A DNA stretch of 64,000 bases from Patescibacteria group bacterium. GTDB lineage: Bacteria > Patescibacteriota > Patescibacteriia > 2-02-FULL-49-11. Under the pieces are notes generated by a model. It was not told where the DNA came from and did not search any database. It saw only the letters and a program-made list of their open reading frames with translations. The DNA lies in the NCBI GenBank assembly GCA_041645165.1, contig JBAZQN010000010.1, forward strand, positions 102-64,101. The letters run 5' to 3'. The position numbers were made by a program, and so were the translations under genes. Positions 7,091 to 59,984 of this stretch are shown one piece after another (position 1 is the stretch's first letter; each line of letters starts with the position of its first letter).

Positions 7091-7150
7091 ATTTTCAATG
7101 CTCAATTTCTCCCCCTACGAGAGATCTCCCGAAGGGAGACAATTTTCAAA
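7091..7150. repeat. ~60-bp intergenic repeat ATTTTCAATGCTCAATTTCTCCCCCTACG.G.GATCTCCCGAAGGGAGACAATTTTCAA (G/C-tract palindrome family)
   Basis: Near-identical at 53201-53260 and, inverted, at 51146-51205. Confidence 0.7.
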
Positions 7151-7245
7151 TAATTCTCAATGCATCAATATTTCAATGTTTGAAAATTGAATCATTGGAG
7201 CATTAATTGTAAATTGAGAATTGGAAATTGAAAATTTTATCATGT

Positions 7246-7317
7246 GCGCCCGTCGTTCAATGGATAGGACACAAGATTGCGGATCTTGTAATGCAGGTTC
7301 AATTCCTGCCGGGCGCA
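7246..7317 (+). tRNA. tRNA-Arg (anticodon GCG)
   Basis: Acceptor GCGCCCG/CGGGCGC. Anticodon stem CAAGA/TCTTG with loop TTGCGGA. T-loop GGTTCAATTCC. Confidence 0.7.
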
Positions 7318-7371
7318 AAAAGTGCGGGGTGAAATTCCCTGCAAGGACAACGATTGGCCTTATAATGATAG

Positions 7372-7400
7372 AAACCCTAGGTAGGGGGTTTTTATTTTTA
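7372..7400 (+). terminator. Probable intrinsic terminator after tRNA-Arg
   Basis: CCCTA-GG-TAGGG hairpin followed by GGTTTTTATTTTTA. Confidence 0.5.
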
Positions 7401-7427
7401 TACTAAAATGCCTGACTAATCGAATTT

Positions 7428-7531
7428 GTCATTCCTGATTTAATCAGGAATCCAGAAACAAAAATACGCAAAAACGTTCGTGGTGTCGGTTTTTATTTTC
7501 TTCTCTGGATTCCCGCTTTCGCGGGAATGAC
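7428..7531. mobile_element. ORF-less hairpin-bounded mini-element (GTCATTCC-hairpin-GGAATCCAGAAA ... TTCTCTGGATTCC-hairpin-GGGAATGAC)
   Basis: Same termini as the GIY-YIG-carrying elements at 15526-15897 and 19158-19612 and as the copy inside tsaC at 44401-44498. The left 25 bp recur at 56306-56330. Confidence 0.6.
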
Positions 7532-7559
7532 GACGGGGAAATCGAAAATGGAGTAGCAG

Positions 7560-10328
7560 TTGAGTATAGTTGATAATTTCATCCAACCGCCGCATACTGA
7601 TAACATGAATACCCTTTCTCTTTCTGATTCTCTTGCAGAACTCGGGCCCATGGGAAAACGGCTGAGCTCCCGTTTGAAGAGCCTCGGCATTATGAGCATC
7701 GAGGATCTGCTCTTTCACTATCCCTTCCGCTACGAGGACTGGTCTCGAGTTCTGCCTATCAAAAATCTCATCCCCGGCATGCAAGCCACGGTGAGCGCGA
7801 CGGTAAAAACTATTTCATTCCGTCCCGGGCGATGGAAGATAAAACCGCTCATTGAAGCGCTCCTTGAGGACCAGAACGGCGATCACATTCGCGCGGTATG
7901 GTTCAACGCGTCATACCTTATTAAAACCCTTACCCCGGGCACCGCGCTTCTGCTTTCCGGAAAAATTGACCGCTCAAAAGACGCGCTCCAACTCACCCAT
8001 CCCGTATGGGAAAAAAACACAACTCACGCCCCAATGCATACCGCGCGTATTATCCCGATTTATCATGCGACGAACACCATAAGCCAAAAACAGATCCGCT
8101 CGCTTATGGCAGTTTCTCTTCAAAATATCCCCTCCATCCCTGATCCGCTTCCCTCGTGGATAGCGTCAGGCGCCAAAATCATCCCTCTTGATCGCGCGAT
8201 CCGCGCCATCCATTTCCCGTCCACGTGGGCGGCTTTGAGTGCGGCGCAAACGCGGCTGAAATTCGACGAATTATTCCTTTTACAACTGCGCAGCGCGCTT
8301 GCCCGACAGGAGCTTACTGCGCTTAAAAGTACCCCCATTCCGTTCCATGAGACTCTTACGCGCACATTCGTTGCCCGTCTCCCTTTCAAGCTCACCACCG
8401 CACAGAGAAAAGCCGCCTGGGAAATTATTAAAGACCTCGGGAAGGGCAAGCCGATGAACCGCCTCCTGGAGGGCGATGTGGGATCGGGAAAGACCGTGGC
8501 CGCCGCCATTGCCGCCTTAAATGTGATTGCGAGCGGCCATCAGGTCGCCTATCTTGCGCCCACCGCCATACTCGCGGCACAGCAGTTCGCGACGTTTTGC
8601 CGTCTTTTTTCCGACACCCCCCTATGTCCCCCCCTTACGAAGGGGGGGAACGGGGGGGTCTTCACCATCGCGCTCATCACGCAGGGGGATATCAGGGTGA
8701 ATAAAATTCAAAGTTTCCCGCCTCAGCGGGATCCCGCATACCTTAGAGAATCAGATTCAAGGGGCGGGACAAAACCCAAAGTTCAAAATGAGAGAGGGTA
8801 TAAAAAAATTTCTAAGCAGGAGCTTGCAGTACTGTTAAGAAAAGGGAGAGTCGACATTTCGATTGGCACACATGCTTTACTTTCTGAACATATCCAATTT
8901 CAAAAACTGGCACTGGTCATCGTCGATGAACAGCACCGTTTCGGCGTCAACCAGAGAGCTGCGCTCCTGCGCAGATCAGCGCAGATAAAAACGCAGATAG
9001 ACGCAGATGCTGATGACTTTCTATATAAGGAATTGACATATCAAATAAGAGGAGCAGCATTTGAAGTGGCAAATAGCTTAGGCCTCGGTTTGAAAGAAAA
9101 TGTGTACCAAAAAGCACTTGAAGAATCATTAAAACAAAAAAGGCTCTTATATGAGCGAGAAAAATCAATTAATGTCTCATTCCACGATACGCGCGTGGGC
9201 AGCTTTAAGCCTGATTTTATTATTGACCAAAAGGTTATCGTAGAACTTAAAGCACTACCTTTTATTGGTAAAATTGAAGAAAAGCAACTCTGGAGTTACC
9301 TCAAAGGTTCAAATTACAAAGTTGCGTTACTCATCAATTTTGGCAACGATAAACTGGATATCAGAAGAATAATCTACGACACCGCGAGAGATAAAACGCC
9401 CCAACCGTCACCAAATCAGCATGCATCTGTGATTAATCAGCACATGTCTGCATCAAGTGATCTGCGACCATCTGCGTCTCATCTGCGTGAATCTGCGTAT
9501 GTGCCGCATCTGTTGTCCATGACCGCCACTCCCATTCCCCGTTCGCTTGCGCTGGTCGCCTACGCGGACCTAGATTTGTCAATCATCAATGAGCTGCCCA
9601 AAGGCCGCGCGCCGATTACCACTAAAATCATCCCGCCTGAACAACGGCAAGACGCGTATAATCTCATCAAGCAAGAGCTCTCATCCGGTCATCAAGCATT
9701 TATCATTTGCCCGCTCATTGATCCTTCCGATGCCTTAGGCGTGAAATCGGTGAAAGAGGAAGCAGAGCGCTTGAAACGAGAACACTTCCCCCATGTGAAT
9801 CTCGCCGCGCTCCATGGCCGCATGACGCCTGCGTCAAAAGACAAGATCATGGGCGCGTTTGCACAAGGAAGTATCCAGGTGCTGGTATCCACGCCAGTGG
9901 TCGAAGTGGGCATTGACGTGCCGAATGCCACGGTAATCCTTATAGAAAGCGCAGAACGGTTTGGGCTGGCGCAACTCCATCAGCTCCGCGGCCGGGTGGG
10001 AAGGAGCACCCACTCCTCGTGGTGCTTGCTCGCGACCGAAACAGAACAAGAGGAGGCGTTGAAACGCCTCCACGCGGCGGTCTCCTCCCGCGACGGCTTT
10101 GCGCTCGCCGAAATTGACCTAGAGATGCGCGGACCGGGAGAAGTGTACGGCACCCAGCAATCCGGCTTCCTCGACACTTTAAAAATCGCCAAGCTTACCG
10201 ATGTCATCATCCTTAAGCAATCAAAAGAGACGGTTGCCCGCCTCCTCCAAGAAGATCCCGCGCTTTCCCGCTACCCCTTACTCCAGCGCCGCCTCGCCGT
10301 ATTCGAGGAATCAGTGCATTTTGAATAG
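7560..10328 (+). CDS. recG: ATP-dependent DNA helicase RecG carrying three in-frame repeat or domain insertions
   Basis: Wedge N-terminus. Walker A GDVGSGKT. DEQH. TATPIPRS. RGRVGR. 922 aa against the ~700 typical of RecG, which is my recollection rather than a measured comparison. Confidence 0.85.
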   Translation: MSIVDNFIQPPHTDNMNTLSLSDSLAELGPMGKRLSSRLKSLGIMSIEDLLFHYPFRYEDWSRVLPIKNLIPGMQATVSATVKTISFRPGRWKIKPLIEALLEDQNGDHIRAVWFNASYLIKTLTPGTALLLSGKIDRSKDALQLTHPVWEKNTTHAPMHTARIIPIYHATNTISQKQIRSLMAVSLQNIPSIPDPLPSWIASGAKIIPLDRAIRAIHFPSTWAALSAAQTRLKFDELFLLQLRSALARQELTALKSTPIPFHETLTRTFVARLPFKLTTAQRKAAWEIIKDLGKGKPMNRLLEGDVGSGKTVAAAIAALNVIASGHQVAYLAPTAILAAQQFATFCRLFSDTPLCPPLTKGGNGGVFTIALITQGDIRVNKIQSFPPQRDPAYLRESDSRGGTKPKVQNERGYKKISKQELAVLLRKGRVDISIGTHALLSEHIQFQKLALVIVDEQHRFGVNQRAALLRRSAQIKTQIDADADDFLYKELTYQIRGAAFEVANSLGLGLKENVYQKALEESLKQKRLLYEREKSINVSFHDTRVGSFKPDFIIDQKVIVELKALPFIGKIEEKQLWSYLKGSNYKVALLINFGNDKLDIRRIIYDTARDKTPQPSPNQHASVINQHMSASSDLRPSASHLRESAYVPHLLSMTATPIPRSLALVAYADLDLSIINELPKGRAPITTKIIPPEQRQDAYNLIKQELSSGHQAFIICPLIDPSDALGVKSVKEEAERLKREHFPHVNLAALHGRMTPASKDKIMGAFAQGSIQVLVSTPVVEVGIDVPNATVILIESAERFGLAQLHQLRGRVGRSTHSSWCLLATETEQEEALKRLHAAVSSRDGFALAEIDLEMRGPGEVYGTQQSGFLDTLKIAKLTDVIILKQSKETVARLLQEDPALSRYPLLQRRLAVFEESVHFE
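8616..8661 (+). repeat. G/C-tract palindromic mini-insert inside recG, in frame (encodes ..PLCPPLTKGGNGG..)
   Basis: CACCCCCCCTATGTCCCCCCCTTACGAAGGGGGGGAACGGGGGGGTC. Same family at 15079-15117, 47275-47316 and 59489-59531. Confidence 0.7.
8715..8775 (+). repeat. CGGGATCCCG-core ~60-bp repeat unit inside recG, in frame
   Basis: TTCCCGCCTCAGCGGGATCCCGCATACCTTAGAGAATCAGATTCAAGGGGCGGGACAAAA. Same family at 15428-15490, 23123-23183 and 43921-44028. Confidence 0.65.
8958..9500 (+). mobile_element. In-frame insertion in recG encoding a GxxExxY (PD-(D/E)XK-like) domain, bounded by inverted heptamer arrays (CGCAGAT x4 on the left, ATCTGCG x4 on the right)
   Basis: Left array 8971-9009 and right array 9459-9497, period about 10-11 bp. 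The encoded segment LTYQIRGAAFEVANSLGLGLKENVYQKALEESL...VELKAL...LINFG has the hallmarks of the GxxExxY family and lies between the DEQH and TATPIPRS motifs. Confidence 0.6.
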
Positions 10329-11472: not shown

Positions 11473-11490
11473 AATTGAATTACACCGTTC

Positions 11491-11511
11491 GTTCAATCTT
11501 GCAGATTGAAC
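11491..11511. repeat. REP hairpin GTTCAATCT-TGC-AGATTGAAC plus conserved 3' flank
   Basis: The ~60-nt unit CGTTCGTTCAATCTTGCAGATTGAACGATTGTTTTTATCG.CGAACA..CCGGTA is also at 30436-30500 and 41497-41561. Confidence 0.75.
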
Positions 11512-11598
11512 GATTGGTTTTATCGCCGAACAGGCCGGTAATGCACATAATATCCAAGGATAGAGGCAGACGGTCGAATGGCTGATCAACTCTGCGGA

Positions 11599-14553: not shown

Positions 14554-15426
14554 TTAAAATTCAAGCTCTACTAACCTCTCAATCTTTTTCTCCGTAATCT
14601 CTCCCGTCAAACGGTAAGAATTTATAAACAGGGCAGGTATCCCGTCAATATCAAGCGCCTGCGCCTCATCCATGCCCTGATTCACAAGATCAGTGGTCGC
14701 GCGGGTTTCTACACAGCGGTTGAATTCTTCAAGATTAAGCCCTAATTCTGATGCTATTATACCATACTTCGACGCAGATGCTCGCAGATAAGACGCAGAT
14801 TCACGCAGATCGTCGTTCATGACTTCGTCACGGGTCAATTTATCTATAAATTCCCAAAATTTACCTTGATTTTGCGCGCAACGGGCGGCAAGGGCGGCGG
14901 GGCGGGAGGCAGGATCTAAAGGATTCGGGAAATCTTTCCATACCAGATGCGCAGATGGTCGCAGATAAGACGCAGATTCACGCAGATCGTCGCGGATATA
15001 CGCAGATATTTGTTTCACCGCATCGCGGCACACTTCAACCACATGGTCGCAAAATAATACGATATTGACTGGTTCGACACCCCCCTCTTGCATCTCCCCC
15101 CTTTCTAGGGGGGAGGATATTGCTGGCAACACCGGGTCAGTGGGCAATACCGTGGGCGCAAACGGCGTATCTTCGCGCAGAGGCGCTAAAGGTTTAACCA
15201 GCGTGATGAGGGGGTCGCTAAAGGTGCCTTGCGCGAAACTGTCAGAGGCAAGCTCTGACGCTACATTTTGATTTTGGACTACTCTCTCTTGTTGATCGTC
15301 TTGAGACGACACAATGAACCCGAGCGCGCTCTTCCCAACTGCAAGCGCTCCCAAACCAAGGACGGCGAGAGAGAACAGCGTAATAGTGAGCGTGCGCGGG
15401 TGTATTTTCATAACTTTAAATCTCAA
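14554..15426 (-). CDS. DsbA-like thioredoxin-fold thiol:disulfide oxidoreductase carrying repeat-derived in-frame inserts
   Basis: DsbA-like C-terminus GIPALFINSYRLTGEI. Signal/TM N-terminus. Two direct CGCAGAT arrays (14770-14815, 14948-15010) encode DDLRESASYLR twice. G/C-tract insert at 15079-15117. Confidence 0.5.
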   Translation of the reverse strand: MRFKVMKIHPRTLTITLFSLAVLGLGALAVGKSALGFIVSSQDDQQERVVQNQNVASELASDSFAQGTFSDPLITLVKPLAPLREDTPFAPTVLPTDPVLPAISSPLERGEMQEGGVEPVNIVLFCDHVVEVCRDAVKQISAYIRDDLRESASYLRPSAHLVWKDFPNPLDPASRPAALAARCAQNQGKFWEFIDKLTRDEVMNDDLRESASYLRASASKYGIIASELGLNLEEFNRCVETRATTDLVNQGMDEAQALDIDGIPALFINSYRLTGEITEKKIERLVELEF

Positions 15427-15427
15427 A

Positions 15428-15490
15428 TCCTCACCGCTCAGGCGGGATCCCGCATACCTTAGATAAAATAATTCAAAGTGCGGGACAAAG
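15428..15490. repeat. CGGGATCCCG-core repeat unit (intergenic)
   Basis: TCACCGCTCAGGCGGGATCCCGCATACCTTAGATAAAATAATTCAAAGTGCGGGACAAAG. Confidence 0.65.
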
Positions 15491-15525
15491 TTTAAAGCTC
15501 AAATGGATGACAAAACTGCACTAAT

Positions 15526-15897
15526 GTCATCCCGGGCTTGACCCGGGATCCAGAAATAACAATAACACTAAAAATCATCAGAAAGATCTTTCCATCCTGG
15601 ATTTACCTCCTCAATCAAACGCAATTTCCACGCCCGTTTCCACCGTTTCATTTGTTTTTCCCTCGTGATTGCCGCATAGATATCAGAAAATTCTTCATAG
15701 TACACCAGTGTATGTACGTGATATTGCCGGGTAAATCCTGGTACCGCTCCCACCTTATGCTCATCTACTCTGCGTCTAAGGTCGTTCGGTACTCCAACGT
15801 ACAAAGTTCCGTTTTTCTGACTCGCCATGATGTACACGTAATAACTCTGCATGATTTTTGTTTATTTTTTCTGGATTCCTGCCTGCGCAGGAATGAC
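15526..15897. mobile_element. Hairpin-bounded element carrying a GIY-YIG gene
   Basis: Left end GTCATCCCGGGCTTGACCCGGGATCCAGAAA. Right end TTTCTGGATTCCTGCCTGCGCAGGAATGAC. Same termini as the ORF-less copies at 7428-7531 and 44401-44498. Confidence 0.6.
15568..15852 (-). CDS. GIY-YIG nuclease family protein
   Basis: 94 aa, YVYIMASQKNGTLYVGVPNDLRRRVDEH. About 80% identical to the 19200-19484 paralog. Confidence 0.7.
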   Translation of the reverse strand: MQSYYVYIMASQKNGTLYVGVPNDLRRRVDEHKVGAVPGFTRQYHVHTLVYYEEFSDIYAAITREKQMKRWKRAWKLRLIEEVNPGWKDLSDDF

Positions 15898-15949
15898 AAT
15901 GACTGAAAATTGAACATTGAGAATTGAAAATTTCCACACTGTTCTGCTT

Positions 15950-19104: not shown

Positions 19105-19157
19105 TCAAGATTCATTTTAATTTTCAATTTCAAATTATTCAGTCGGCCTCTTCACTT

Positions 19158-19612
19158 GTCATCCCCGACTAGGTCGGGGATCCAGAAAAAACAATAACAT
19201 TAAAAATCATCAGAAAGATCTTTCCATCCTGGATTTACCTCCTCAATCAAACGCAATTTCCACATACGTTTCCATTTCTTTAATTGTTTCTCTCGCTGGA
19301 TGGCAATTTTTATATCAGTGTATTCCTCATAGTAGACCAGCAAATGTATGTGATATTGTTGGGTAAATCCCGGTATCAGTCCATTCTTATGCTCATCTGC
19401 TCTGCGTCTAAGATCGTTGGTTACCCCAATGTACAACGTCCCATTTTTCTGGCTTGCCATGATGTACACATAGTAACTCTGCATGATTTTTGTTTATTTT
19501 TTCTGGATTCCTGCTGGAGTTTATCCCGTACCGCGATACGGGGCAGGAATGACGAGATAGGGTGGATTCCTGTAGGAGTTTACCTCGTACTGCGATACGG
19601 GGCAGGAATGAC
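19158..19612. mobile_element. Hairpin-bounded element carrying a GIY-YIG gene; right terminus duplicated
   Basis: Left end GTCATCCCCGACTAGGTCGGGGATCCAGAAAAAA. Right end CTGGATTCCTG...GGGGCAGGAATGAC occurs twice (19503-19553, 19562-19612). Confidence 0.55.
19200..19484 (-). CDS. GIY-YIG nuclease family protein
   Basis: 94 aa. Paralog of 15568-15852. Confidence 0.7.
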   Translation of the reverse strand: MQSYYVYIMASQKNGTLYIGVTNDLRRRADEHKNGLIPGFTQQYHIHLLVYYEEYTDIKIAIQREKQLKKWKRMWKLRLIEEVNPGWKDLSDDF

Positions 19613-42275: not shown

Positions 42276-42277
42276 AG

Positions 42278-43903: not shown

Positions 43904-43920
43904 TAGAAAAAATTTTCAAT

Positions 43921-44028: not shown

Positions 44029-44093
44029 ATGACTCAATGATGCAAATGATTGAAAATTGAAACATTGAAAATTATTTGAAAATTGTAAATTGG

Positions 44094-44984: not shown

Positions 44985-47900
44985 TCAATCTTGTGTAACA
45001 AGATTGAGCAGTTTCCCTTTCACATACACCTTCCTCGCCACCTCTTTTCCTTTCAAATACTTCTGAATCTCGGGCAGTGCGTTTGCCGCCGCATATACCT
45101 CTTCTTCTCCCGCATCGCGGGACACTTCTGCCACTCCCCGCTTCTTCCCATCGATCTGTATGACCACCTGCACAGTCTCCTGTGTCATCAGCGCGAGATC
45201 AAAAGCCGGCCACGGCTCTTTGAAAATAGACCGTGCGTTGCCAAGCTGTTCCCATAACTCTTCCGTGATATGCGGCGCAAACGGCGCAAGAAGAATGAGG
45301 AGCGCCTTGTAGCCGGATAAAGTATCAGCGCGGTCTTCAAGGGCAGGTAATTCGTTCGTGTACGTCATGAGCTGTGCGATCGCAGTATTAAATTTAAACG
45401 CTTCAATATCTTCTGTAACTTTCTTAATCGTCTGATGCGCCAAACGCGCAAGCGCGTCGCTTTTAAACGCACTTACTACGCCCTTAAACGCCTGCGTATG
45501 AATGCGTGGTGAATGCGTATGAATGCGGGTCCCCAAGGACCATACGCGCTCCAAAAACCTCCTTATCCCTACGATGCTGCGCATGCTCCAAGGTTTTGCA
45601 TCTTCAAACGGGCCCATGAACATTTCATACAATCGCATAGTGTCTGCGCCGTAGATTTCGATGACTTCATCGGGATTGATGACATTGCCTCGCGATTTCG
45701 ACATCTTTTGCCCGTCCTCTCCCAAGATCAGCCCTTGATTTTTTAACGTAAGGAAAGGCTCGTCAAAATCAATAATCCCCAGCCAATGCAGCACCTTGGT
45801 AAAAAACCGCGCATACATCAGATGCATGACTGCATGCTCTGCCCCGCCGACATAGAGGTCTACCGGAAGCCACGCATGAATCTTCTCGCGGCTTGCAAAT
45901 TCTTTCGCATTGCGAGGATCCGTATAGCGGAAAAAATACCAGGAAGAGTCCACAAAAGTATCCATCGTATCGCACTCCCTCCGCACGTCTTCGCCATACG
46001 AACCGCACTTGGGGCATCTCACCTCATGGAATTTTTTTGACCGCTTAAGAGGCGACTCCCCCGTAGGCCGGAAATCAACATCATCAGGCAACCGCACCGG
46101 TAGATCTTTTTCCGGGACCGGCACCTCACCGCACTTCACACAATAGATAATGGGAATCGGCGCTCCCCAATAGCGCTGACGCGAGATGAGCCAATCACGC
46201 AGACGATAGGTAACCTGCTTCCTGCCAAACTTTTCTGCCATTTTTAAAAGAGCCTCTTCCGACGACAGTCCGGTAAACTCCCCCGACTCGACAAGCATCC
46301 CGTGTCCTATATAACATCCTACATCCATAACCTCCTTGAGTAATTCCGGAAATTCAAGGGTCCCCATATCTTTCATCGTGAAATGTCCCCGTCCTTTTAA
46401 TTCTCTCAGTTCAGCGTTTAATTCCTTCGCATACCACCGTGCACTTTCCTTGCGGTATTCTTCTTCATTGTCGGAAATAAAGATGATAATTTTTCTCACC
46501 TGATCCTTAATCTTTGGATTTATGTCAAAATCATATAACGGACCAAGACGCTGACGATTCTCGGTGATGGTTTTCCTACCAGGCGCCACCAAAAGGAGGG
46601 TATCAATTTTTGCATCCGTCTCTCCCAGCCACCGCACCGCAAATGCGCCGCCCGCGCTATGCCCTATCACTACTGAATTTTCATCTAAGGGAAGGTGTGC
46701 TACCTGCTTTTTCCATTCATCATATTGCGGCTCCCAAGCATTCGGCATGAGTGGATTAAATACCTTGAAACCTCGTTCTTCCAACTTCGGCGTTATCCAT
46801 CCCAACCAGTGATGGGTATTTTCTGGAATATAATCAGCTTTCCCGCGTGGATCAGATTTTGGAGATCCGTGTACCATAAGCACCTTTCTCTCTTTTGGCC
46901 GTATTACACACTTGATCGGCAAATTGAATTTTTTTGCAAACACATAATCCCGCTCGTCATGTGCCGGAACGGCCATAATTGCGCCCGTACCATAACCCAT
47001 GAGCACGTAATCAGCAATCCAAATTGGTATCTCTTCCTTAGTGGCGGGATTGATTGCGGTTATCCCTTGTAATTCAACACCAGTTTTTTCCTTCTGTAAC
47101 TGACCACGCTCCAGTTCAGTTTTGCTTTTAGCGCTCTGAATATATTGTTCAACAAATTTGAAATTTGAAATTTGAAATTTGAAATTTTCAATTATGGGGT
47201 GTTCCGGTGCGAGCACCATGTAAGTCGCCCCAAATAACGTATCCGGCCTCGTGGTGAATACTTCGATCCATAACTCCCCCTCTCCCCCTCTTACCTTAAG
47301 AGGGGGTTGGGGGGCGTTACTCACTATAGGAAATTTTATCAATGCTCCTTCACTTCTCCCAATCCAATTCTGCTGCATGAGTTTGATAGGTTCCGGCCAA
47401 TTAATCTTTTCAAGGCCTGAAAGCAGTCCTGCCGTGACTCGCTTGTTCCTTTTCGCGTCTTGTGTCCGATCCTCGATAAAATCAGTGATTTTGAAAAACC
47501 ACTGCGCAAGCTCTTTCTGCACTACCGTATGCTTGCAGCGTTCGCATTTCCCGTCCACCACTTGCTCGCGCGCGAGCACGGTTTGGCAGTGTGCACACCA
47601 ATTCACCGGGGCTAATCTCTTATAGGCCAAGCCGTGTTGGTAGAGCAAGAGGAAAAACCATTGCGTCCAGCGGTAATAATCAGGATCTGCGGTATTCACT
47701 TCCCGCGACCAATCATAGGAAAACCCCAGCGACTTGATCTGGCGCCGAAAATTTTCAATGCTCTTCGCAGTGGTCTCCGCGGGATGCACACCCACTTTGA
47801 TCGCGTAATTCTCCGCAGGAAGCCCGAACGCGTCCCATCCCATCGGATGAAGCGCCATAGAGCCCCGCATGCGCAAATAGCGGCTCACGATATCGGTGGC

Positions 47901-48104
47901 AGTATAGCCTTCGGGGTGCCCTACATGGAGCCCTTGCGAGGAAGGATAGGGAAACATGTCGAGCACATAGCGGCGATCTTCGCGCTTTCTCCCCTCATCA
48001 TCAGCGCGAAACGCGCCCTGCGCTTCCCAGCGCTCCTGCCATTTCTGCTCAATTTTTTTATGGTCGTAGGAGTGAGACATAACAGTACATAATCCAAAAA
48101 CCAA
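44985..48104 (-). CDS. leuS: Leucyl-tRNA synthetase with an in-frame ~200-aa alpha/beta-hydrolase domain insertion and two small repeat inserts
   Basis: HPEGY-type HIGH region and KMSKS. Insert ...VHGSPKSD...VVIGHSAGGAFAVRWL...LLLVAPG lies between the editing domain and YRLRDWLISRQRYWG. G/C-tract insert at 47275-47316. AAATTTC x4 at 47155-47185. Confidence 0.85.
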   Translation of the reverse strand: MVFGLCTVMSHSYDHKKIEQKWQERWEAQGAFRADDEGRKREDRRYVLDMFPYPSSQGLHVGHPEGYTATDIVSRYLRMRGSMALHPMGWDAFGLPAENYAIKVGVHPAETTAKSIENFRRQIKSLGFSYDWSREVNTADPDYYRWTQWFFLLLYQHGLAYKRLAPVNWCAHCQTVLAREQVVDGKCERCKHTVVQKELAQWFFKITDFIEDRTQDAKRNKRVTAGLLSGLEKINWPEPIKLMQQNWIGRSEGALIKFPIVSNAPQPPLKVRGGEGELWIEVFTTRPDTLFGATYMVLAPEHPIIENFKFQISNFKFVEQYIQSAKSKTELERGQLQKEKTGVELQGITAINPATKEEIPIWIADYVLMGYGTGAIMAVPAHDERDYVFAKKFNLPIKCVIRPKERKVLMVHGSPKSDPRGKADYIPENTHHWLGWITPKLEERGFKVFNPLMPNAWEPQYDEWKKQVAHLPLDENSVVIGHSAGGAFAVRWLGETDAKIDTLLLVAPGRKTITENRQRLGPLYDFDINPKIKDQVRKIIIFISDNEEEYRKESARWYAKELNAELRELKGRGHFTMKDMGTLEFPELLKEVMDVGCYIGHGMLVESGEFTGLSSEEALLKMAEKFGRKQVTYRLRDWLISRQRYWGAPIPIIYCVKCGEVPVPEKDLPVRLPDDVDFRPTGESPLKRSKKFHEVRCPKCGSYGEDVRRECDTMDTFVDSSWYFFRYTDPRNAKEFASREKIHAWLPVDLYVGGAEHAVMHLMYARFFTKVLHWLGIIDFDEPFLTLKNQGLILGEDGQKMSKSRGNVINPDEVIEIYGADTMRLYEMFMGPFEDAKPWSMRSIVGIRRFLERVWSLGTRIHTHSPRIHTQAFKGVVSAFKSDALARLAHQTIKKVTEDIEAFKFNTAIAQLMTYTNELPALEDRADTLSGYKALLILLAPFAPHITEELWEQLGNARSIFKEPWPAFDLALMTQETVQVVIQIDGKKRGVAEVSRDAGEEEVYAAANALPEIQKYLKGKEVARKVYVKGKLLNLVTQD

Positions 48105-48173: not shown

Positions 48174-49571
48174 TTGCATTTTGAGTTACATGTTGATTGT
48201 ACCATTGACTCAATGAATTTCCAATGGTATACCCAAGTAATGATACGGTCACATAATACCATGCCCAAATTATTCCGCCATATTACCCTCGCCTTTCTAC
48301 GTTTCCTCGTCCGCCTACTCACTGGATTAGGCAAAGGCATCGCGCTTGCGGGAAGACGTCTCTATCGCTCGCTCTCCTCCTCGACGAAAATCGTGTCAGG
48401 CATAAAGGGTATCATGGTGCGCCTGTATGAAACCCTCCGTACACTCCGCGCAAACGCGCGCGTAATCCATCCTCAAGGAAAAATACGCATCCTCCTCACC
48501 CATCCCTACACCCTTAAGGTAATCATTGCGGGAATGATTCTTCTAGTTATCTTCACAAACATTAACTCGCGCTCCGTCGCTGCTGATGAACTGGGGCACA
48601 ACAGCCTCATCTACCGCTTGATCTCCATTGATGCCCGCATGATCGTGGTCGACGCGAGCCCTGCAGCGCTCCCTCAAGCAGGCAGAACATTCAGGGATAC
48701 CATTGAGAGAGAAAATTCCACGAATGAGGGGATCGCGGGCATGCCGTTAGCGCTCGATACGAGTATCGGCACAATAGTGCGCCCAAACCCCACTGAAACC
48801 TTGCGCGGAAGCCGCCCGCGCGACAGCATTATCACTTACACGGTACAGCAGAATGATACCATAAGCGGCATTGCCTACCGTTTCACGCTCTTCGCGCGTA
48901 CGATTCTTTGGGCGAATAATTTAAGCGGCACCTCCGTAATCCGTCCCGGCGACTCTCTGGTCATACCTCAAGTGGACGGCGTGATCCATACGGTAAGGCG
49001 CGGTGACACTCTCCAGGGGATTGCGACGAGATACCGCTCAACCATTGATAAAATTACCGCGCTCAATAATATCTCACAAGGAGCAAAACTTGAACCCGGC
49101 ACGCTCCTCACCGTTCCGGATGGCCGCCCCCCATCCGTAAGCGTCCCTGCGCAAACCCGAGTTGCCACGCGCACTGCACCAAGAAATGTGGGGAGCGCGC
49201 GTTCTCCTAGCGGTGGCCTTATCTGGCCCACCACTGGCCGCGCCATAACCCAATATTTCAGCTGGCGCCACGGAGGACTCGATATCGATGGCAACCTTAG
49301 TTCCCCGATCTACGCGGCGGAAAGCGGCACGGTAGAAATCGCGCAGGGAGGGTGGAATGGCGGATATGGCAACGTCATCGTCATAAGCCATAGTAAAAGC
49401 ACAAAGACAAGGTATGGCCACCTTTCCCGCCTCTATGTGCGTCCGGGAGAACAAGTGCAGCGAGGGCAGATCATCGGTATGATGGGGTCCACCGGCCGTT
49501 CTACAGGATCCCACCTCCATTTCGAAATCCTTATTAACGGCGCGCGCAAAAATCCGTTAAGCTACTTTTAA
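48174..49571 (+). CDS. LysM-domain M23 family metallopeptidase
   Basis: Two LysM motifs (YTVQQNDTISGIA, HTVRRGDTLQGIA). M23 HLHFEI. N-terminal TM helix. Start uncertain. Confidence 0.75.
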   Translation: MHFELHVDCTIDSMNFQWYTQVMIRSHNTMPKLFRHITLAFLRFLVRLLTGLGKGIALAGRRLYRSLSSSTKIVSGIKGIMVRLYETLRTLRANARVIHPQGKIRILLTHPYTLKVIIAGMILLVIFTNINSRSVAADELGHNSLIYRLISIDARMIVVDASPAALPQAGRTFRDTIERENSTNEGIAGMPLALDTSIGTIVRPNPTETLRGSRPRDSIITYTVQQNDTISGIAYRFTLFARTILWANNLSGTSVIRPGDSLVIPQVDGVIHTVRRGDTLQGIATRYRSTIDKITALNNISQGAKLEPGTLLTVPDGRPPSVSVPAQTRVATRTAPRNVGSARSPSGGLIWPTTGRAITQYFSWRHGGLDIDGNLSSPIYAAESGTVEIAQGGWNGGYGNVIVISHSKSTKTRYGHLSRLYVRPGEQVQRGQIIGMMGSTGRSTGSHLHFEILINGARKNPLSYF

Positions 49572-49935
49572 TTAAGGAGTTTGACCCCGTTAGAGGTCGC
49601 CCTGCCGAAGGCACGGCTTCAACCGCCTAAGGGGCGGCTTACCTCTCACGGTACGCGCTCACTGGGGGCATCGCCATCCTCGCGGTTTAAGCCCCCCTCT
49701 TGGTCTCCCCCCTGATAAGGGCGCTTAAAAAAATAACATTTCACTTGTCCCATAGGTTTGTCCTTATTTTGTTGACGTACGGCGTAGATGGCGGGATATG
49801 TTATTTTTTTACGGCGCCTAAGGGGGAGACCACACGCCTTGTCCTCCCCCTATGGCTTCGCCATATCTTGATGATATAAAGGGGGAGGTTTGGTGGGGGT
49901 GTTGATGGTCAGTGAGCGCTTACCTCCTTACGGGG

Positions 49936-49964
49936 TTGACTGTTCGGTTTTTGTTCGGTATACT
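49936..49964 (+). promoter_or_regulatory. Sigma70-like promoter upstream of lexA: TTGACT, 17 bp, TATACT
   Basis: Consensus-like hexamers with 17-bp spacing. The spacer contains TGTTCGG twice. Confidence 0.45.
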
Positions 49965-50146
49965 ATATTTAGTTTTCCACAGATAATACTACTTCTGTCT
50001 TTTCCTAATAACTCGCTCACAGTCACCATTCAGGCTCGAATGCAAAAATCAAAATCCAAAAGTCAAAATGAAAATGTAAAATCTTTAAATTTTGATCTAT
50101 CATTTTGCATTTTGAGATTTACATTTTACATTTACCCACATTTCCT

Positions 50147-50755
50147 ATGCTCACCAAACAACAAACCAAAGTTTTAGACATTATTAAAAATTGCATTAAG
50201 GACCACGGGTATGCTCCTTCCATCCGGGAAATCGCGGAAGAAATGGGTGTTTCCTCCCCTGCCACGGTAAACGAGCACCTCGAAGCGCTCGTGCAAAAGG
50301 GATTCTTGAAAAAAACGGACCGCGCCATCCGCAATATTGAACTCACGAAAAAGGTGTGGATGCTCAGCAAAAGCATTGAGCTGCCGCTCGTGGGGCTCAT
50401 TGCGGCAGGCGAGCCGATTGAAGCGATTGAACAAAGGGGAGAAACCGTCGCCGTACCCACCGAGCTTGCGGGCGACGAGAACTGCTACGTGCTGCGGGTG
50501 AAAGGCGATTCCATGATGGAAGACGGGATCTTAAATGGAGACTACGTGATTGTGGAACGCACCTTCTATCCTAAAAATGGCGACGTGGTGGTGGCGCTTC
50601 TGGATAATGAACACGCGACGCTCAAACGGTATTACCGGGAAAAAGACAGGATCCGGCTGCAGCCCGCAAATAAAAACTACAACCCTCTCTTCGTAAAGAA
50701 TCCCGCGATTCAGGGAATTGTTAAGGGATTGATAAGAAAATTTGCGGTAGCATAA
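50147..50755 (+). CDS. lexA: LexA repressor
   Basis: wHTH N-terminus. S24 peptidase C-terminus with cleavage-site region AAGEP, Ser (GDSM) and Lys (LKRY). Confidence 0.85.
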   Translation: MLTKQQTKVLDIIKNCIKDHGYAPSIREIAEEMGVSSPATVNEHLEALVQKGFLKKTDRAIRNIELTKKVWMLSKSIELPLVGLIAAGEPIEAIEQRGETVAVPTELAGDENCYVLRVKGDSMMEDGILNGDYVIVERTFYPKNGDVVVALLDNEHATLKRYYREKDRIRLQPANKNYNPLFVKNPAIQGIVKGLIRKFAVA

Positions 50756-50819: not shown

Positions 50820-51068
50820 ATGTCCCTCACCTCGTACCACGACCCCATTTCGGTGCTTGCCTCCTTCCGCGGAGGCGAAGTGAAACCCGTGGCGTTCAAA
50901 TGGGGAGGGCGCGACTGGCACGTAAAACAGGTGAATCTCGTGAGCGCCTCGCGCGACGGCCGCGCCAAACTCATATATTTCTCCGTCTCAGACGAAGCAA
51001 ACGCGTTCAAACTCCAATTCAATAGCGAAACATTGGAGTGGGCGCTGGAGGAAGTGTGGCATGATTAA
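50820..51068 (+). CDS. Hypothetical small protein between lexA and dinB
   Basis: 82-aa ORF in the same orientation. No recognised motif. Confidence 0.35.
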   Translation: MSLTSYHDPISVLASFRGGEVKPVAFKWGGRDWHVKQVNLVSASRDGRAKLIYFSVSDEANAFKLQFNSETLEWALEEVWHD

Positions 51069-51145
51069 TTTTCAATTATCAATTTTCAATCAATGACCTA
51101 ATGAATCAATTTTCAAACTTTGAACATTGCGAAATTGAAAATTGT

Positions 51146-51205
51146 TTGAAAATTGTCCCCCTTCGGGAGATCCCCCGTAGGGGGAGAAATTGAGCATTGA
51201 AAATT
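51146..51205. repeat. Inverted copy of the ~60-bp intergenic repeat
   Basis: Reverse complement matches 53201-53260 and 7091-7150. Confidence 0.65.
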
Positions 51206-53200: not shown

Positions 53201-53260
53201 ATTTTCAATGCTCAATTTCTCCCCCTACGGGGGATCTCCCGAAGGGAGACAATTTTCAAT
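53201..53260. repeat. ~60-bp intergenic repeat copy
   Basis: Near-identical to 7091-7150. Followed at 53275-53350 by an AT-rich unit near-identical to 22545-22630. Confidence 0.7.
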
Positions 53261-53357
53261 CAATATCCCAATGTCATAATTTTCAAACGTTTGATAATTG
53301 TTTAATTGAAAATTAAATGAAAATTGAAGCTTGAAAATTGAAAATTATCAAAACAGC

Positions 53358-56298: not shown

Positions 56299-56357
56299 CC
56301 TAATCCCGAATTTGTCATTCCTGATTTAATTTCGATGTTATACACCTTAAAAAATTT

Positions 56358-56855
56358 CTATTTTTTCAATAAAAATTGCTTTAATTTTAATGTCGCCTCA
56401 TCAACCTTGGTCAAGTTACTTTTGGTTTTAAAAGTTTTCTTAGCGAACTCCATAATTGGACGCACAGATTCTATTTTTCTGCCAAATTTTCTTTTCATCC
56501 AATCAAAACGTGGAAATACCCAAACGTGGAAATGATGCAACGTGTCTTCTTCCTGGATAAGGTAAACAACCTTAACGCCAAGAACCTGCCTTAAGGCTGA
56601 ACGTAAGCGATATAATAATTTTATGAAATCCCGTTGTTCTTTGTCAGTAAATTCATCAACACTTTGAATATGCCTTCTGGATGAAATAATCACAAAACCC
56701 GGAATAGGAATTTCATAGTCTTGGTGGGCATCAAAATATTTTGACTTTACAATATCGCCTAGGCTTATTTCACCTTTTTCACGGGTACACCCAAGGCAAG
56801 TTATTTTTTTCACTTGGCCTGTATAATTGATTATTTTATTAATTGACCTTGACAT
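56358..56855 (-). CDS. HIT-like protein (degenerate histidine triad)
   Basis: LHHFHVWVFPR. The canonical HxHxH is incomplete. Confidence 0.4.
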   Translation of the reverse strand: MSRSINKIINYTGQVKKITCLGCTREKGEISLGDIVKSKYFDAHQDYEIPIPGFVIISSRRHIQSVDEFTDKEQRDFIKLLYRLRSALRQVLGVKVVYLIQEEDTLHHFHVWVFPRFDWMKRKFGRKIESVRPIMEFAKKTFKTKSNLTKVDEATLKLKQFLLKK

Positions 56856-56904
56856 ACCATGAAATTAAATTTTTCAATAATGAAGAGAATACGAATTATA
56901 TTTA

Positions 56905-57468
56905 TCACGAAAAAGTGCTCATTTCAGTGAGATATTTTTTTGCTTCCTCATACCACGGCTGGGCAATCTGTTTGGCGAAAGGAGACGATATCCTGTGAAA
57001 CACCATACGTATTCTCCTCCCCGCCTCGCTGGTACTGCCATCACGCATAGATTTCTTGGCAAGGCTTACGGCCTTTTCTTCCAAAAATGCCAAACAATCG
57101 GCATCGCACAATACATTTTGATCTTCATCGCCCCCTGTCTCATGATTCGCCACAAAGTGCTTGACTCGCGCGATGAGTTCTTCTTCCGCACCTTCGTGCC
57201 GCAGGAATTTTTCAATATCAACCGCGCTTAAGTCCTGATGTTTGCGCAATAGTGCGGGATCATCAGACCCCTTTTTCCAGTCTCCATAAAACGCCCTTTC
57301 AATATCATGCGCTATCCCGGCAATGAGCAATGCCTCATCCGCGTCAGGTTTAAGCTTCTTAATCCAGTATACGGTGCGCTGGTGATGCGAGATATTGCTC
57401 AAGGCTCCCGCCTCCGTGAAAGCATCTATAACAAACCGTTCCACCTTATCAAACATAATGTGATCCAT
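56905..57468 (-). CDS. HD-domain phosphohydrolase
   Basis: LIAGIAHDIER HD motif. Confidence 0.55.
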   Translation of the reverse strand: MDHIMFDKVERFVIDAFTEAGALSNISHHQRTVYWIKKLKPDADEALLIAGIAHDIERAFYGDWKKGSDDPALLRKHQDLSAVDIEKFLRHEGAEEELIARVKHFVANHETGGDEDQNVLCDADCLAFLEEKAVSLAKKSMRDGSTSEAGRRIRMVFHRISSPFAKQIAQPWYEEAKKYLTEMSTFS

Positions 57469-57501
57469 TTAACTTTTGCTTATATGTTCCCTAGAGACTG
57501 A

Positions 57502-58410
57502 CTAATCAAACACGACGGTAGTCATCATTAAATCAAAAACACTGTTCACTGGCCCCAGCGTTGTCTCAAAAATGTAATTGATCCCGTTATGCTTAATCAT
57601 GTAACCGTACCCTGAACCCATGCCCACATATTTAAACTTTCTAAATTCTTGGTTATTGATGGTTTCGTTGAAAGTGAAATAAGCCCCTTCCACGCTGTCG
57701 CTCCCCGTCGTCCTGACGTGAAACCTGTTCCCGGGATGGTTTTGCGTTATGATGAAATAATTATTTTCCGGCGTCTCCACGGTATATGACCCGTCGTTTG
57801 GATATTTTATGCTCACGCCCAAGTTTCGATAACTCTTCCACGCCGAGGTGGTATCAGCTATCTTAAAAGTTTTCACGATATCTTCGATTTCCCGCATTCT
57901 CGCAACCATCGTTTCATTGATAGCGCCTTGCGAGGATGAATATCCAAAGACATATTCACCACTTTCACCCAGATAGGTCGGTGCAGGATCCTCTTCTGAT
58001 TTTATTTGCTGCCACTGGCTCTTTGTGTGCATACTGATGTTAAATAATGAATCCTGGGTAGGAAATCCAAAATCAATGGAATCACTGATGCCAAACGAAC
58101 CCCAATCAAGTGTTCGATTTTTTGTGGCATAACCGCTCCATGTGTTCGACAGGGTTAACGTGAATCCGTATTGCGCATTATCGTAGACAATTATTCCAGC
58201 ATCGTCGGCTCCTTGATTAATATTCTGAGATTCGTCTGCAATGGGCTGTCCGCCATTATTTTCACCTGCTGCGGAAGGCGCACTGTTTTGAGCGGTTGGG
58301 GTAGAGCTGATCGGCTTATTTTGATCCGCCTGCCGCTGACTGCAGCCGGTAAACAGAATGATGCCCAATGTGAGTATGCTTAAAAATATATATTTCCTCA
58401 TATTTTTCAT
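57502..58410 (-). CDS. Putative lipoprotein
   Basis: Signal peptide with lipobox-like FTGC. Ser/Gly/Asn-rich linker. Confidence 0.45.
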   Translation of the reverse strand: MKNMRKYIFLSILTLGIILFTGCSQRQADQNKPISSTPTAQNSAPSAAGENNGGQPIADESQNINQGADDAGIIVYDNAQYGFTLTLSNTWSGYATKNRTLDWGSFGISDSIDFGFPTQDSLFNISMHTKSQWQQIKSEEDPAPTYLGESGEYVFGYSSSQGAINETMVARMREIEDIVKTFKIADTTSAWKSYRNLGVSIKYPNDGSYTVETPENNYFIITQNHPGNRFHVRTTGSDSVEGAYFTFNETINNQEFRKFKYVGMGSGYGYMIKHNGINYIFETTLGPVNSVFDLMMTTVVFD

Positions 58411-59984
58411 TAATTTGATAATATAACGAGATAATGCTTCGCTTCTTCTTGAGTGGTGATTTTTCCTTCCAGCTGCGCTTCGCGGATGCGCGTTAATATT
58501 TTCCCCACTTCCGGCCCCTCGCCTATGCCAAGCATGGTCATGATGTCGTGACCGGAGAGAAGCGGTTTTGGCAGGGTATGCTTGCCTTTTTCCTTGAGCG
58601 CCTCAATGCGAACGCGCATACGTTTATAGTCGGCAATCGTCCCCTTGCCATCCTTGGCAATCGTAGCCGCTCCATCCGCATAAGAGAGCTTGAGAAGTTC
58701 TTCGCCTAATAAGGGATCGCGGAAGAAATATTTCTCAATGGTACTGGGGCGCAATTCGTCCACATCGCCGTGGACAAAAAGAAGGTGATGGCGGATGAGC
58801 GCACATACGCGATTCGCATCAACTCCGATGCCGGTGGGGCTGGTGAGTTTGAGCCGCTCAATAAGAGAAGCTACCATTTCCGCGCCCACCCTGTCGTGGT
58901 CGTTAAACCGTATCCGATCGGCGCCATGCGCTTCAGGGGTGGTGAGCGTGGGGGGTTTCCCTATGTCATGCAAAAGCGCCGCAAGCGCCAACTCCGCATT
59001 CCAAAGCGGCTGCGGAGCAGGAAGCAAAACAGGATTGCCGAATTCTTGGGCAAAAGCAGGAGACTCAATCACCGCGAGCGCAAGCCGCGTGTGAGTCCAC
59101 ACGTCTCCCTCCGTATGGAATTCTTGCGGTTGCGGGCACCCTTTCATCGCCAGAAGCTCCGGCATCAAAATGGAAAATGTACCGCTCGACTCAAAAAGGT
59201 CAAACGCCGCCAAGGGATGTACATCAAGCGCTTTCAAGAATTCTTGCGCTATTACTTCCGCAGGAATAATCCTTGCGCCTTGGCTATCAAGGTCAAGTAA
59301 ATGTGTGATACTGCGCGCGATCGCATCCCAGGTAGAGGCCTCAATTGTAAACCCAAGAGATACGGCAAACCGCAAGCCGCGCAATGCGCGGGAGTAATCT
59401 TCTCTCATGCGCTCATCAGGGTTCCCCACCGTCCTTAATTTTTTATCCGTGAGATCCTCTAAACCGTTAAACTCATCAACAAGGATACCTCCCTTTTGTC
59501 CCCCCCTTAATAAGGGGGGGATGGGGGGGTCGGTCACCCGCATGGCCATCGCATTGATGGTAAAATCCCGCCGCCCTAAATCCTCCTTCAAGGGAAGCGC
59601 TGGGTCGGATTGCGTATCCACATCGCGGTATTTCCCCGTGCCCCACGCGTGTTCGGTGCGCGGGAGTGCAATATCAAGGGCTTCCACAGAGGAAGGTTCT
59701 GTCAGTTTCAATTTATATACCCCAAATGTCTTGCCGACATAATTCACCGCGCCGAAACGCGACAACTGGGCTTCAAGTTCCGGCGTTTCGACATTGCGCA
59801 CCACAAAATCATAGTCCTTCGTATCAGCGCGCTCCAATAGGCAATCCCGCACTGCCCCTCCCACTAAATACACCTCTGTCTGCGGCAGCGATGCACAGAG
59901 CGCGTCAGCCCAACCCAAAATACCGCTTTTGCGCAGTTCGTCCCTATAGGCTTTGAGAACACTATTGGCTTTTTGCGAATCCAT
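58410..59984 (-). CDS. cca: CCA-adding tRNA nucleotidyltransferase with HD domain; carries an in-frame G/C-tract insert
   Basis: YLVGGAVRDCLL. DYDFVV. HD motif LHDIGK. Insert PPIPPLLRGGQKGG is encoded at 59489-59531. Confidence 0.8.
   Translation of the reverse strand: MDSQKANSVLKAYRDELRKSGILGWADALCASLPQTEVYLVGGAVRDCLLERADTKDYDFVVRNVETPELEAQLSRFGAVNYVGKTFGVYKLKLTEPSSVEALDIALPRTEHAWGTGKYRDVDTQSDPALPLKEDLGRRDFTINAMAMRVTDPPIPPLLRGGQKGGILVDEFNGLEDLTDKKLRTVGNPDERMREDYSRALRGLRFAVSLGFTIEASTWDAIARSITHLLDLDSQGARIIPAEVIAQEFLKALDVHPLAAFDLFESSGTFSILMPELLAMKGCPQPQEFHTEGDVWTHTRLALAVIESPAFAQEFGNPVLLPAPQPLWNAELALAALLHDIGKPPTLTTPEAHGADRIRFNDHDRVGAEMVASLIERLKLTSPTGIGVDANRVCALIRHHLLFVHGDVDELRPSTIEKYFFRDPLLGEELLKLSYADGAATIAKDGKGTIADYKRMRVRIEALKEKGKHTLPKPLLSGHDIMTMLGIGEGPEVGKILTRIREAQLEGKITTQEEAKHYLVILSN

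Follow-up and report, generated by a model that had tools for sequence, protein, structure and literature searches.

How do four genes of unrelated function come to carry, in frame, what looks like one and the same small palindrome? The question is raised by 64,000 nucleotides from the metagenome-assembled genome of an uncultured Patescibacteria group bacterium (contig JBAZQN010000010.1; the whole stretch, hereafter the window, has a GC content of ~49% and a coding density of ~83%), where recG, a dsbA-like gene, leuS and cca each contain a nested C-run/G-run palindrome of 40-55 nt with stems of 9-10 bp. A first-pass annotation made from the letters had located these four units, had noted that each adds a Pro/Gly-rich peptide without breaking the frame (PPLTKGGNGG in recG, for example) and had likened them to the palindromic inserts of Rickettsia; the units and their peptides are confirmed in the sequence, and the likeness is supported by empty sites in orthologs of all four genes. 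I consider it likely that the four hairpins are solo, non-autonomous copies of a pan-bacterial family of nested G/C palindromes, comparable to Rickettsia palindromic elements (RPEs) and repetitive extragenic palindromes (REPs), and tied to a selfish gene for a DUF559 nuclease.

In its general form the unit appears to consist of the inner hairpin C5-7(T)(C)TTA-NNN-TAA(G)(A)G5-7 with a C-run outside it on the left and a G-run outside it on the right; (CA)TAAC...GTTA(TG) often closes the whole. The coding copies possess terminal inverted symmetry, so that each whole unit is a nested palindrome, and when single-stranded they fold with the inner hairpin enclosed by the outer C-run/G-run stem (DNA folds of -18.7, -16.2, -17.4 and -10.6 kcal/mol; z -2.7 to -5.2). 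The copies in recG and cca are of one type (type 1: T-C7-TTA-NN-AA-G7-A, a spacer of 2-3 nt, then G7-TC), leuS carries a sister form (type 2: TAAC-N-C5-6-NN-C5TCTTA-NNN-TAAGAG5-NN-G5-6-N-GTTA), and the dsbA-like gene has a half form with the inner hairpin CTCCCCCCT-ttct-AGGGGGGAG at 15094-15115 and a single outer C6 run at 15080-15085. The first-pass annotation had left room for the copies resembling one another in their homopolymer tracts only; they align beyond these, as two subfamilies with conserved spacing, run length and TTA...TAA core that recur in hundreds of copies elsewhere. Nor is the pattern what base composition would yield, since C5-N2-12-G5 has 10 matches in the window against 0.5 expected, the composite CCCCCYCTT-N1-7-AAGRGGGGG-N1-4-GGGGG has 4 against 0.00 in shuffles, and, when perfect C4+/G4+ hairpins from 6 bp upwards are counted, the window has 15 and shuffles have 1.8; stems made of C/G tracts reach 9 bp or more just four times, and these are the four coding copies, all intragenic. 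At gathering thresholds Rfam recognizes only three tRNAs in the window and likewise only three tRNA hits in 20 DUF559 loci, and because the Rfam scans gave only these tRNAs and one chance-level hit (in the intergenic palindrome described further on), the hairpins are not a curated RNA family.

The clearest view of an insertion is provided by recG, where the inserted block of 42 nt reads CCTATGT-C7-TTACGAA-G7-AAC-G7-TCTT and lies in the peptide stretch TPLCPPLTKGGNGGVF, while the complete folded unit spans 8616-8659 and its left outer C-run partly borrows the host CACCCC. Where the window has FCRLFSDTPLCPPLTKGGNGGVFTIALITQGD, two orthologs of 88% (P0122) and 81% (P0123) identity have FCRLFSDTP-HTIALITQGD; the DNA of the empty site (L123, L126) is GACACCCC followed by GCA and CACCATC, and the window swaps this GCA for the 42 nt, a net gain of 39 nt. 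The site is occupied too in a third ortholog, 71% identical and from a syntenic relative (L125), but by another type-1 copy whose loop and spacers differ. In the structure, the alignment of RecG to 1GM5 is interrupted from residue 443 to residue 460, a connection that follows motif Ia. Similarly, the dsbA-like element encodes SSPLERGEMQEGG, a peptide missing from the syntenic L125 ortholog.

In leuS the element reads TAAC-T-C5-TCT-C5TCTTA-CCT-TAAGAG5-TT-G6-C-GTTA and encodes NAPQPPLKVRGGEGE within NAPQPPLKVRGGEGELW; compared with the Thermus thermophilus enzyme (2V0C) it adds 13 residues at the turn of the beta-hairpin entering the CP1 editing domain, after 'ILFPVEG' and before 'KEVRIPVFTTRPDT'. 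The peptide is missing in nearly all of 60 orthologs, and the one ortholog found to carry it (P0021, L001; 64% identical) has an element whose DNA is 89% identical to that of the window (83% at third codon positions) against 62% (40%) over the whole gene. Because many unrelated inserts, including whole hydrolase domains, occupy the same turn elsewhere in the Candidate Phyla Radiation (CPR), the turn is a permissive hot spot. LeuS also has other passengers: residues 429-587 in the window (46344-46820) form an inserted Ser_hydrolase domain (PF06821), CPR orthologs carry inserted hydrolase, NUDIX, Ham1, Y1_Tnp and PDDEXK_3 domains, many of them have a large hydrolase-type insert at the very CP1-entry turn where the window has its G/C hairpin, and CPR orthologs also have at this site K/S/Q-rich low-complexity peptides that look like translated heptamer repeats.

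The cca element, CCTCCC-TTTTGT-C7-TTAATAA-G7-AT-G7, encodes DPPIPPLLRGGQKGG within TDPPIPPLLRGGQKGG in the head domain, at the turn following the RRDFTINA strand. The insert is common to relatives at 85-89% identity and missing in orthologs at 61-65%, and relatives with an overall identity of 81-86% have the element in the same or almost the same DNA. An AlphaFold model of the protein has a mean predicted local distance difference test (pLDDT) score of 90.7, and its sole segment below 50 is residues 156-164, the insert. In all three enzymes compared with structures, the inserts thus sit at loops or turns. The expectation behind the first-pass annotation, namely that orthologs should not have these peptides, holds for the two closest RecG relatives, the dsbA-like gene, the more distant cca orthologs and most LeuS proteins, and fails for the close cca relatives, for the one LeuS and, with a different copy, for the RecG of L125. 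For the leuS and recG sites, a single ancestral insertion and independent insertions are both possible with the few orthologs whose DNA is at hand.

The same element is found far beyond this lineage. An exact-pattern scan with one genome per species gave at least 120 loci in Cyanobacteria (Microcoleus, Oscillatoria PCC 10802, Calothrix PCC 7716 and Pseudanabaena, including Pseudanabaena minima), Planctomycetota, Nitrospirota, Desulfuromonadota/Geobacter, Proteobacteria, Omnitrophota, Dehalococcoidia and many Patescibacteria, with both types recurring at the same run lengths, with the same spacers and the same TTA...TAA core, and the motif also occurs in 103 viral-contig stretches. The family is therefore not CPR-specific but pan-bacterial, and the earlier remark that such inserts seemed undescribed for this kind of genome is right insofar as I found no description in the literature, though the inserts are not peculiar to such genomes. 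In-frame copies reside in LeuS and SbcC (Microcoleus), UvrA (Nitrospirota), transketolase and PolA (CPR) and PolX (a gammaproteobacterium), as well as in a CHAT protein and a histidine kinase, usually in inter-domain linkers. The share of hairpins within open frames of 250 aa or longer is 54-60% in CPR, cyanobacterial, planctomycete and Nitrospirota loci and 12% in Desulfuromonadota; these percentages are descriptive only, since the loci were chosen by motif and GC-rich ones (planctomycete, 62% GC) can give long frames by chance.

What these palindromes accompany in other genomes is a gene. A DUF559 gene of ~125 aa abuts them in 5 motif-selected loci of 4 phyla, and in one further locus (L126) beside a recG ortholog; the partner matches Pfam PF04480 with E-values of 1e-30 to 1e-35, and MTES_1575 as well. 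As an independent test, 80 metagenome loci were fetched by protein patterns, with no hairpin criterion, and searched for perfect C4+/G4+ hairpins of at least 8 bp. Such a hairpin lies within 130 nt upstream of the DUF559 start in 59 of the 80 loci, and between -40 and +130 nt of the stop in 41 of them, while the parts of these loci that lie over 300 nt away contain 22 hairpins in 111 kb (0.029 per 145 nt). A statistical association of palindrome and DUF559 is thus shown, and it has a canonical layout: [C4-5TCTTAAGnTAAGAG4-5]-NNN-GGGGGAGTT-ATG on the 5' side and TAA-C5-6-NNNN-[C5-6TTAnnnTAAG5-6] on the 3' side, often with complete composites on both. Among the 61 loci whose DUF559 open reading frame (ORF) is small and complete, the start directly follows GTT in 23, a G-run ending in GTT precedes it in 17 (most commonly GGGGGAGTT-ATG), CCCC lies within 3 nt of the stop in 16, and 8 more stop at a TAA inside the hairpin.

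This suggests a home context in which the palindrome brackets a small (~120-125 aa) DUF559/Vsr-like PD-(D/E)XK endonuclease gene, whose ribosome-binding site would be the G-run, whose ATG would come after GTT and whose stop would often fall in or next to the downstream palindrome. Solo copies come and go at orthologous sites, behaving like RPEs, or like REPs and their doublets (REPINs). C-runs and G-runs translate as Pro/Gly in every frame, and because of this copies could survive at permissive loops; an open core in at least one frame per strand would help, and selection would presumably keep only those insertions that are in frame at permissive surface turns or linkers. Horizontal transfer of the DUF559 unit may explain how the same sequence came to be in many phyla.

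Two other nuclease families in the window are also accompanied by inverted repeats. Two 94-aa GIY-YIG genes (15568-15852 and 19200-19484, both on the minus strand) are each bracketed by inverted hairpins GTCATYCC...GGRATCC (15524-15898; 19156-19553). Between tRNA-Arg and recG (7427-7532) is a gene-less pair of the same hairpins at a distance of 75-80 nt from each other, and a second gene-less pair (44399-44499) is in frame inside Sua5/YrdC (44094-44822, minus strand), where it encodes VIPAQAGIQ...SGSRVKPGMT and splits the Pfam domain into two stretches. Furthermore, RecG itself contains in frame a PDDEXK_3/GxxExxY nuclease domain (~9027-9372) between inverted (CGCAGAT)n repeats (8965-9008 and 9459-9503). 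This domain occurs in many CPR RecG proteins (~830-910 aa) and is missing from the 88%-identical ortholog, and one ortholog retains only the peptide encoded by (CGCAGAT)n. Solo (CGCAGAT)n repeats, read as 'DLRESASYLRPSA', are in frame in the dsbA-like gene (14772-14811 and 14944-14988) and in ksgA (43119-43162), with copy numbers that differ between the window and L125. By analogy, the GIY-YIG and GxxExxY modules, with their full and gene-less or solo forms, lend support to a general model of a nuclease together with its palindrome. A third repeat family, with the core GCGGGATCCCGC, has a copy in frame in recG (8704-8787; QSFPPQRDPAYLRESDSRGGTKPKVQ) that is present in the 88%-identical ortholog and absent from the 81% and 71% ones; other copies of this core lie at 15420-15503, 23113-23154, 43912-43995 and 25574-25645.

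How the G/C palindromes move has four candidate answers: mobilization in trans by DUF559, scars of homing-type invasion, a Y1 transposase and attC-like recombination. The first of these, in which the DUF559 nuclease would act on the hairpin or cruciform and propagate copies as the REP-associated tyrosine transposase (RAYT) does for REPs, is a real candidate that I put forward tentatively and with some doubt.

If a homing-type DUF559 gene instead invaded together with its 5' and 3' hairpins and its ORF was later deleted, the palindrome would stay behind in frame like a solo long terminal repeat. Some solo copies do retain what would be the DUF559 ribosome-binding site and start, GGGGGAGTTATG (leuS and L063, for example), the palindrome arms overlap the start and stop codons of DUF559, the GIY-YIG and GxxExxY modules exist in full and gene-less forms in the window, and host genes are known to be fractured by free-standing Vsr-like homing endonucleases whose 5' hairpins sequester the ribosome-binding site (PMC2677866). 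However, a DUF559 ORF with its own stop would split the essential leuS, cca or recG, PF04480 is at or near these sites in none of the 120 listed LeuS, RecG and CCA orthologs, and solo copies far outnumber linked ones, with DUF559 in 5 of the 120 listed genome loci and in 0 of the 103 viral loci, so that such scars are an unlikely origin for the solo hairpins.

The nested, doublet-like architecture, and the absence of a target duplication at recG, would also suit REP/REPIN-type elements moved by a Y1 transposase (RAYT or IS200-like), the adjacency of DUF559 being secondary; intragenic REPs are known in UvrA, UvrB, PolA and RecBCD (PMC3733652), and some CPR LeuS orthologs bear a Y1_Tnp (PF01797) insert. 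Yet neither strand of any of the four copies has the GTAG/CGTC tag, there is no Y1 transposase among the ~50 window proteins scanned (64 kb of the genome), and REP sequences are normally lineage-specific rather than conserved across phyla, all of which makes this route quite improbable. Very improbable, too, is a cassette system in which a site-specific recombinase inserts ORFs between attC-like palindromes. The type-2 ends (CA)TAAC...GTTA(TG) do recall the AAC/GTT of the attC R''/R' boxes, the DUF559 ORF is located exactly between two palindromes, and one metagenome-assembled genome of the Desulfuromonadaceae (L111), the only locus to show an array, has six type-2 palindromes within ~1.5 kb (2755-4250), the first four ~220 nt apart, with one DUF559 gene inside the array directly upstream of a 1082-aa ORF, which looks like a cassette array. 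Most copies, however, are solitary and in housekeeping genes rather than arrayed, no integrase or recombinase was seen in the window, and attC sites keep structure and not sequence between lineages, whereas here the sequence is kept across phyla. Finally, it is scarcely credible that the inserts are no more than Pro/Gly loops of the ordinary lineage-specific sort, or an artefact of assembly, with incidental palindromy, even though the sites are hypervariable loops with many unrelated inserts in CPR orthologs, given the empty sites in near-identical orthologs, third-position conservation far above the gene background, the recurrence of this DNA in unrelated genes and phyla, isolate and complete genomes among them (the Oscillatoria, Calothrix and Pseudanabaena minima named above), and the agreement of independent assemblies (ENA contig ERZ27249422 k141_570798 covers the same DNA as the window), the last two of which led me to reject a poly-G or assembly artefact.

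The reading that I prefer, solo copies of a DUF559-linked palindrome, has several points against it. There is no DUF559 gene in the 64-kb window, nor inside any of the 103 viral stretches that carry the motif, and a phage-borne DUF559 as the transfer vehicle is not supported. Association with DUF559 is not mechanism, and the 80 loci are closely related, at 44-58% identity, to seeds that were mostly found by motif, so the hairpin link may hold for one DUF559 subfamily only. The site with nucleotide-level boundaries is recG, the only one of its kind, and it has no target-site duplication and an imprecise junction (GCA lost, TCTT gained). The filled alleles of the window and L125 have the junction ...TCTT(T)/CAC in common, which would be expected from one old insertion that P0122 and P0123 later lost just as much as from two independent hits, and the re-use of sites in LeuS and RecG could reflect selection for a few permissive loops and not targeting. 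That the inserts would be translated rather than removed has a single support, the continuity of the reading frame.

Taking all of this together, it is a plausible but tentative proposal, to which I give a little less than even weight, that one palindrome family extending from CPR to cyanobacteria, planctomycetes and Nitrospirota is the cis-element of a selfish DUF559 (Vsr-like PD-(D/E)XK) nuclease, resembling REP/RAYT on a different fold and shaped for coding DNA, and that with the GIY-YIG- and GxxExxY-linked palindromes it would be a major ongoing source of lineage-specific insertions in CPR housekeeping proteins.

Table 1. Palindromes, repeats and host genes in the window.
Feature	Positions	Strand	Basis and remarks
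recG host gene	7605..10328	+	907-922 aa; Pfam, repeats, ortholog alignment, alignment to 1GM5
Type-1 composite in recG	8621..8662	.	filled/empty site comparison, protein alignment, fold -18.7 kcal/mol, z -3.2
dsbA-like host gene, thioredoxin fold	14554..15426	-	Pfam Thioredoxin_4 and DSBA; ortholog comparison
Half-composite in dsbA-like	15079..15117	.	sequence, hairpin scan, fold; absent from L125 ortholog
leuS host gene	44985..48104	-	1031-1039 aa; Pfam
Type-2 composite in leuS	47271..47319	.	sequence, ortholog comparison, composite pattern, fold
cca host gene (CCA-adding enzyme with HD domain)	58410..59984	-	524 aa; Pfam, homologs, PDB matches
Type-1 composite in cca	59487..59530	.	sequence, ortholog comparison, fold, AlphaFold model
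Double-hairpin repeat copy 1, intergenic	7091..7150	+	first hairpin degenerate; repeat search, fold
Double-hairpin repeat copy 2, intergenic, inverted	51146..51205	-	97% complementary to copy 3
Double-hairpin repeat copy 3, intergenic	53201..53260	+	hairpins TCCCCCTACGGGGGA and TCTCCCGAAGGGAGA
Nested palindrome, intergenic, 360 nt	49575..49935	.	sequence, RNA fold; between M23 peptidase and lexA

The first-pass annotation had also counted four intergenic stretches as relatives of the coding units. Three of them (the double-hairpin copies in Table 1, one inverted as it had said) are real repeats of 60 nt, 83-97% identical to one another, in which two adjacent small hairpins lie within heptamer repeats; they are a separate subfamily that does not align with the coding copies, and membership of the same family was rejected, small G/C hairpins being all that they have in common. 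Heptamer-like arrays (TGAAAAT/AATTTTC, TTGGTCA-like) occupy many other intergenic spacers as well, for example 7140-7241, 22502-22640, 30611-30730, 44035-44105, 44837-44989, 47155-47206, 51056-51155 and 53237-53351. The fourth stretch, 49690-49870, proved to be a part of a nested palindrome of 360 nt that has G/C-run stems (GGTCTCCCCCCT...AAGGGGGAGACC and CCTCCCCCT...AGGGGGAGG), inverted ends of 38 nt (GGTCTCCCCCCTGATAAGGGCGCTTAAAAAAATAACAT) and an RNA fold of -161 kcal/mol (z -4.8). This palindrome belongs to no Rfam family, an E-value scan of 49400-50150 having given one chance-level hit; it is probably an element, or a set of nested elements, resembling a transposable element of the miniature inverted-repeat kind (MITE), and may alternatively be a structured RNA.

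Other repeats and passengers in the window deserve mention in their own right. An ORF on the minus strand without a Pfam match (61343-62425) contains three tandem repeats of 198 nt (61758-62351; 100%, 100% and 77% identical) and is flanked by perfect inverted repeats of 38-39 nt (61213-61251/62629-62667 and 61308-61345/62889-62926). A block of 75 nt, 75-89% identical at 11483-11557, 30432-30506 and 41496-41570 (and 41649-41692), forms the 5' ends of three minus-strand genes, including ORFs of 1195 and 1674 aa, and is probably the coding sequence of an N-terminal signal or pilin-like leader that the three have in common; upstream, at 11604, 18376, 18396 and 42224, there is a related motif, TCTGCAAGA(C/T)TGAACCAAC. 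In addition, a 259-aa ORF (24527-25306) has at residues 74-144 a 23S_rRNA_IVP domain (a four-helix bundle, PF05635), a family present in the syntenic relative L125 as free-standing genes of 126-130 aa, and this domain may represent a further small 'selfish' gene that has been fused in frame.

Why does this matter? Selfish palindromes that insert in frame have hitherto passed for a curiosity of Rickettsia, apart from a scatter of intragenic REPs elsewhere, and here the same element of 40-55 nt is fixed in LeuS, CCA, RecG, UvrA, PolA, PolX, SbcC and transketolase of very distant phyla. If the reading advanced here is true, it would give a biological role to DUF559, a very common domain of unknown function, add a second model beside REP/RAYT for the gain and spread of short palindromes, explain part of the unusual insertions in CPR proteins, and warn annotators and structure predictors that such Pro/Gly loops are mobile DNA and not functional motifs. 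The hairpins also offer a simple marker of recent insertion or loss in uncultured populations.

It remains to place the family among the systems already described. The kind of phenomenon is known from intragenic REPs and from RPEs; the family itself, its spread over phyla, its occurrence in CPR and its partnership with DUF559 were not found in the searchable literature, where full-text queries, including literal sequence strings, returned no description of these palindromes or of MITEs in Patescibacteria, and no account of palindromes linked to DUF559 or to GxxExxY. With MITEs (PMC10969869) the G/C elements share a non-autonomous nature, terminal inverted symmetry, stable hairpins and occasional in-frame fusions, but they are much smaller, have no target-site duplication at the one resolved junction and have no parent insertion sequence with a DDE transposase; membership of the DDE-type MITEs was rejected on the missing duplication (recG only) and on the absence of any bracketed insertion sequence or transposase in the loci examined. 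With attC sites they share imperfect nested palindromes, AAC...GTT ends and a position between ORFs, but they are mostly solitary and intragenic, conserved in sequence across phyla and seen in no integrase context, and the full 7-nt box consensus RYYYAAC...GTTRRRY is unmatched, the type-2 ends being TAAC...GTTA(TG) and type 1 having no such ends.

Closer parallels are the free-standing Vsr-like homing endonucleases (Dassa et al., 2009, PMC2677866; I-Bth0305I, PMC3239194), which are likewise small Vsr-fold genes whose start is closely preceded by a hairpin able to sequester the ribosome-binding site, and which likewise invade host genes, homing by DUF559 being putative here. The partner gene is a small Vsr-fold ORF and has a 5' hairpin overlapping the ribosome-binding site in the 59 of 80 loci already mentioned; the known examples, however, are associated with phages, inteins or introns and fracture their hosts, and no dispersed solo palindromes have been described for them. 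RPEs, palindromes of ~100-150 bp in Rickettsia (Ogata et al., 2000; reviewed in PMC10969869), are similar in being palindromic selfish DNA in frame in unrelated housekeeping genes, where they add surface peptides that are compatible with the fold and polymorphic between relatives. They differ in that size, in their restriction to Rickettsia and in having no known partner enzyme, whereas the G/C elements are 40-55 nt long, consist of C/G homopolymer runs, occur in many phyla and are associated with DUF559; size and composition set them apart from families RPE-1 to RPE-10, to judge from the description of these in PMC10969869.

The last comparison is with REPs and REPINs and their RAYTs (REPtrons), for which intragenic copies are also on record (PMC3116915, PMC2817692, PMC3733652). 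The two kinds have in common that they are short GC-rich palindromes, come in doublet or nested forms and lack a target duplication; each has cognate palindromes bracketing a single nuclease-type gene, and intragenic copies of each sit in genes for the repair and replication of DNA (UvrA, PolA). REPs are defined by a GTAG/CGTC tetranucleotide at one end of the palindrome (PMC3733652), and the four copies were excluded from that class by their sequence, the G/C elements having neither GTAG nor CGTC. The bracketed gene here encodes a PD-(D/E)XK (Vsr-like, DUF559) nuclease instead of a Y1 transposase, and the G/C element, unlike REPs, is conserved in sequence across phyla and has more than half of its copies in coding sequence in several of them.

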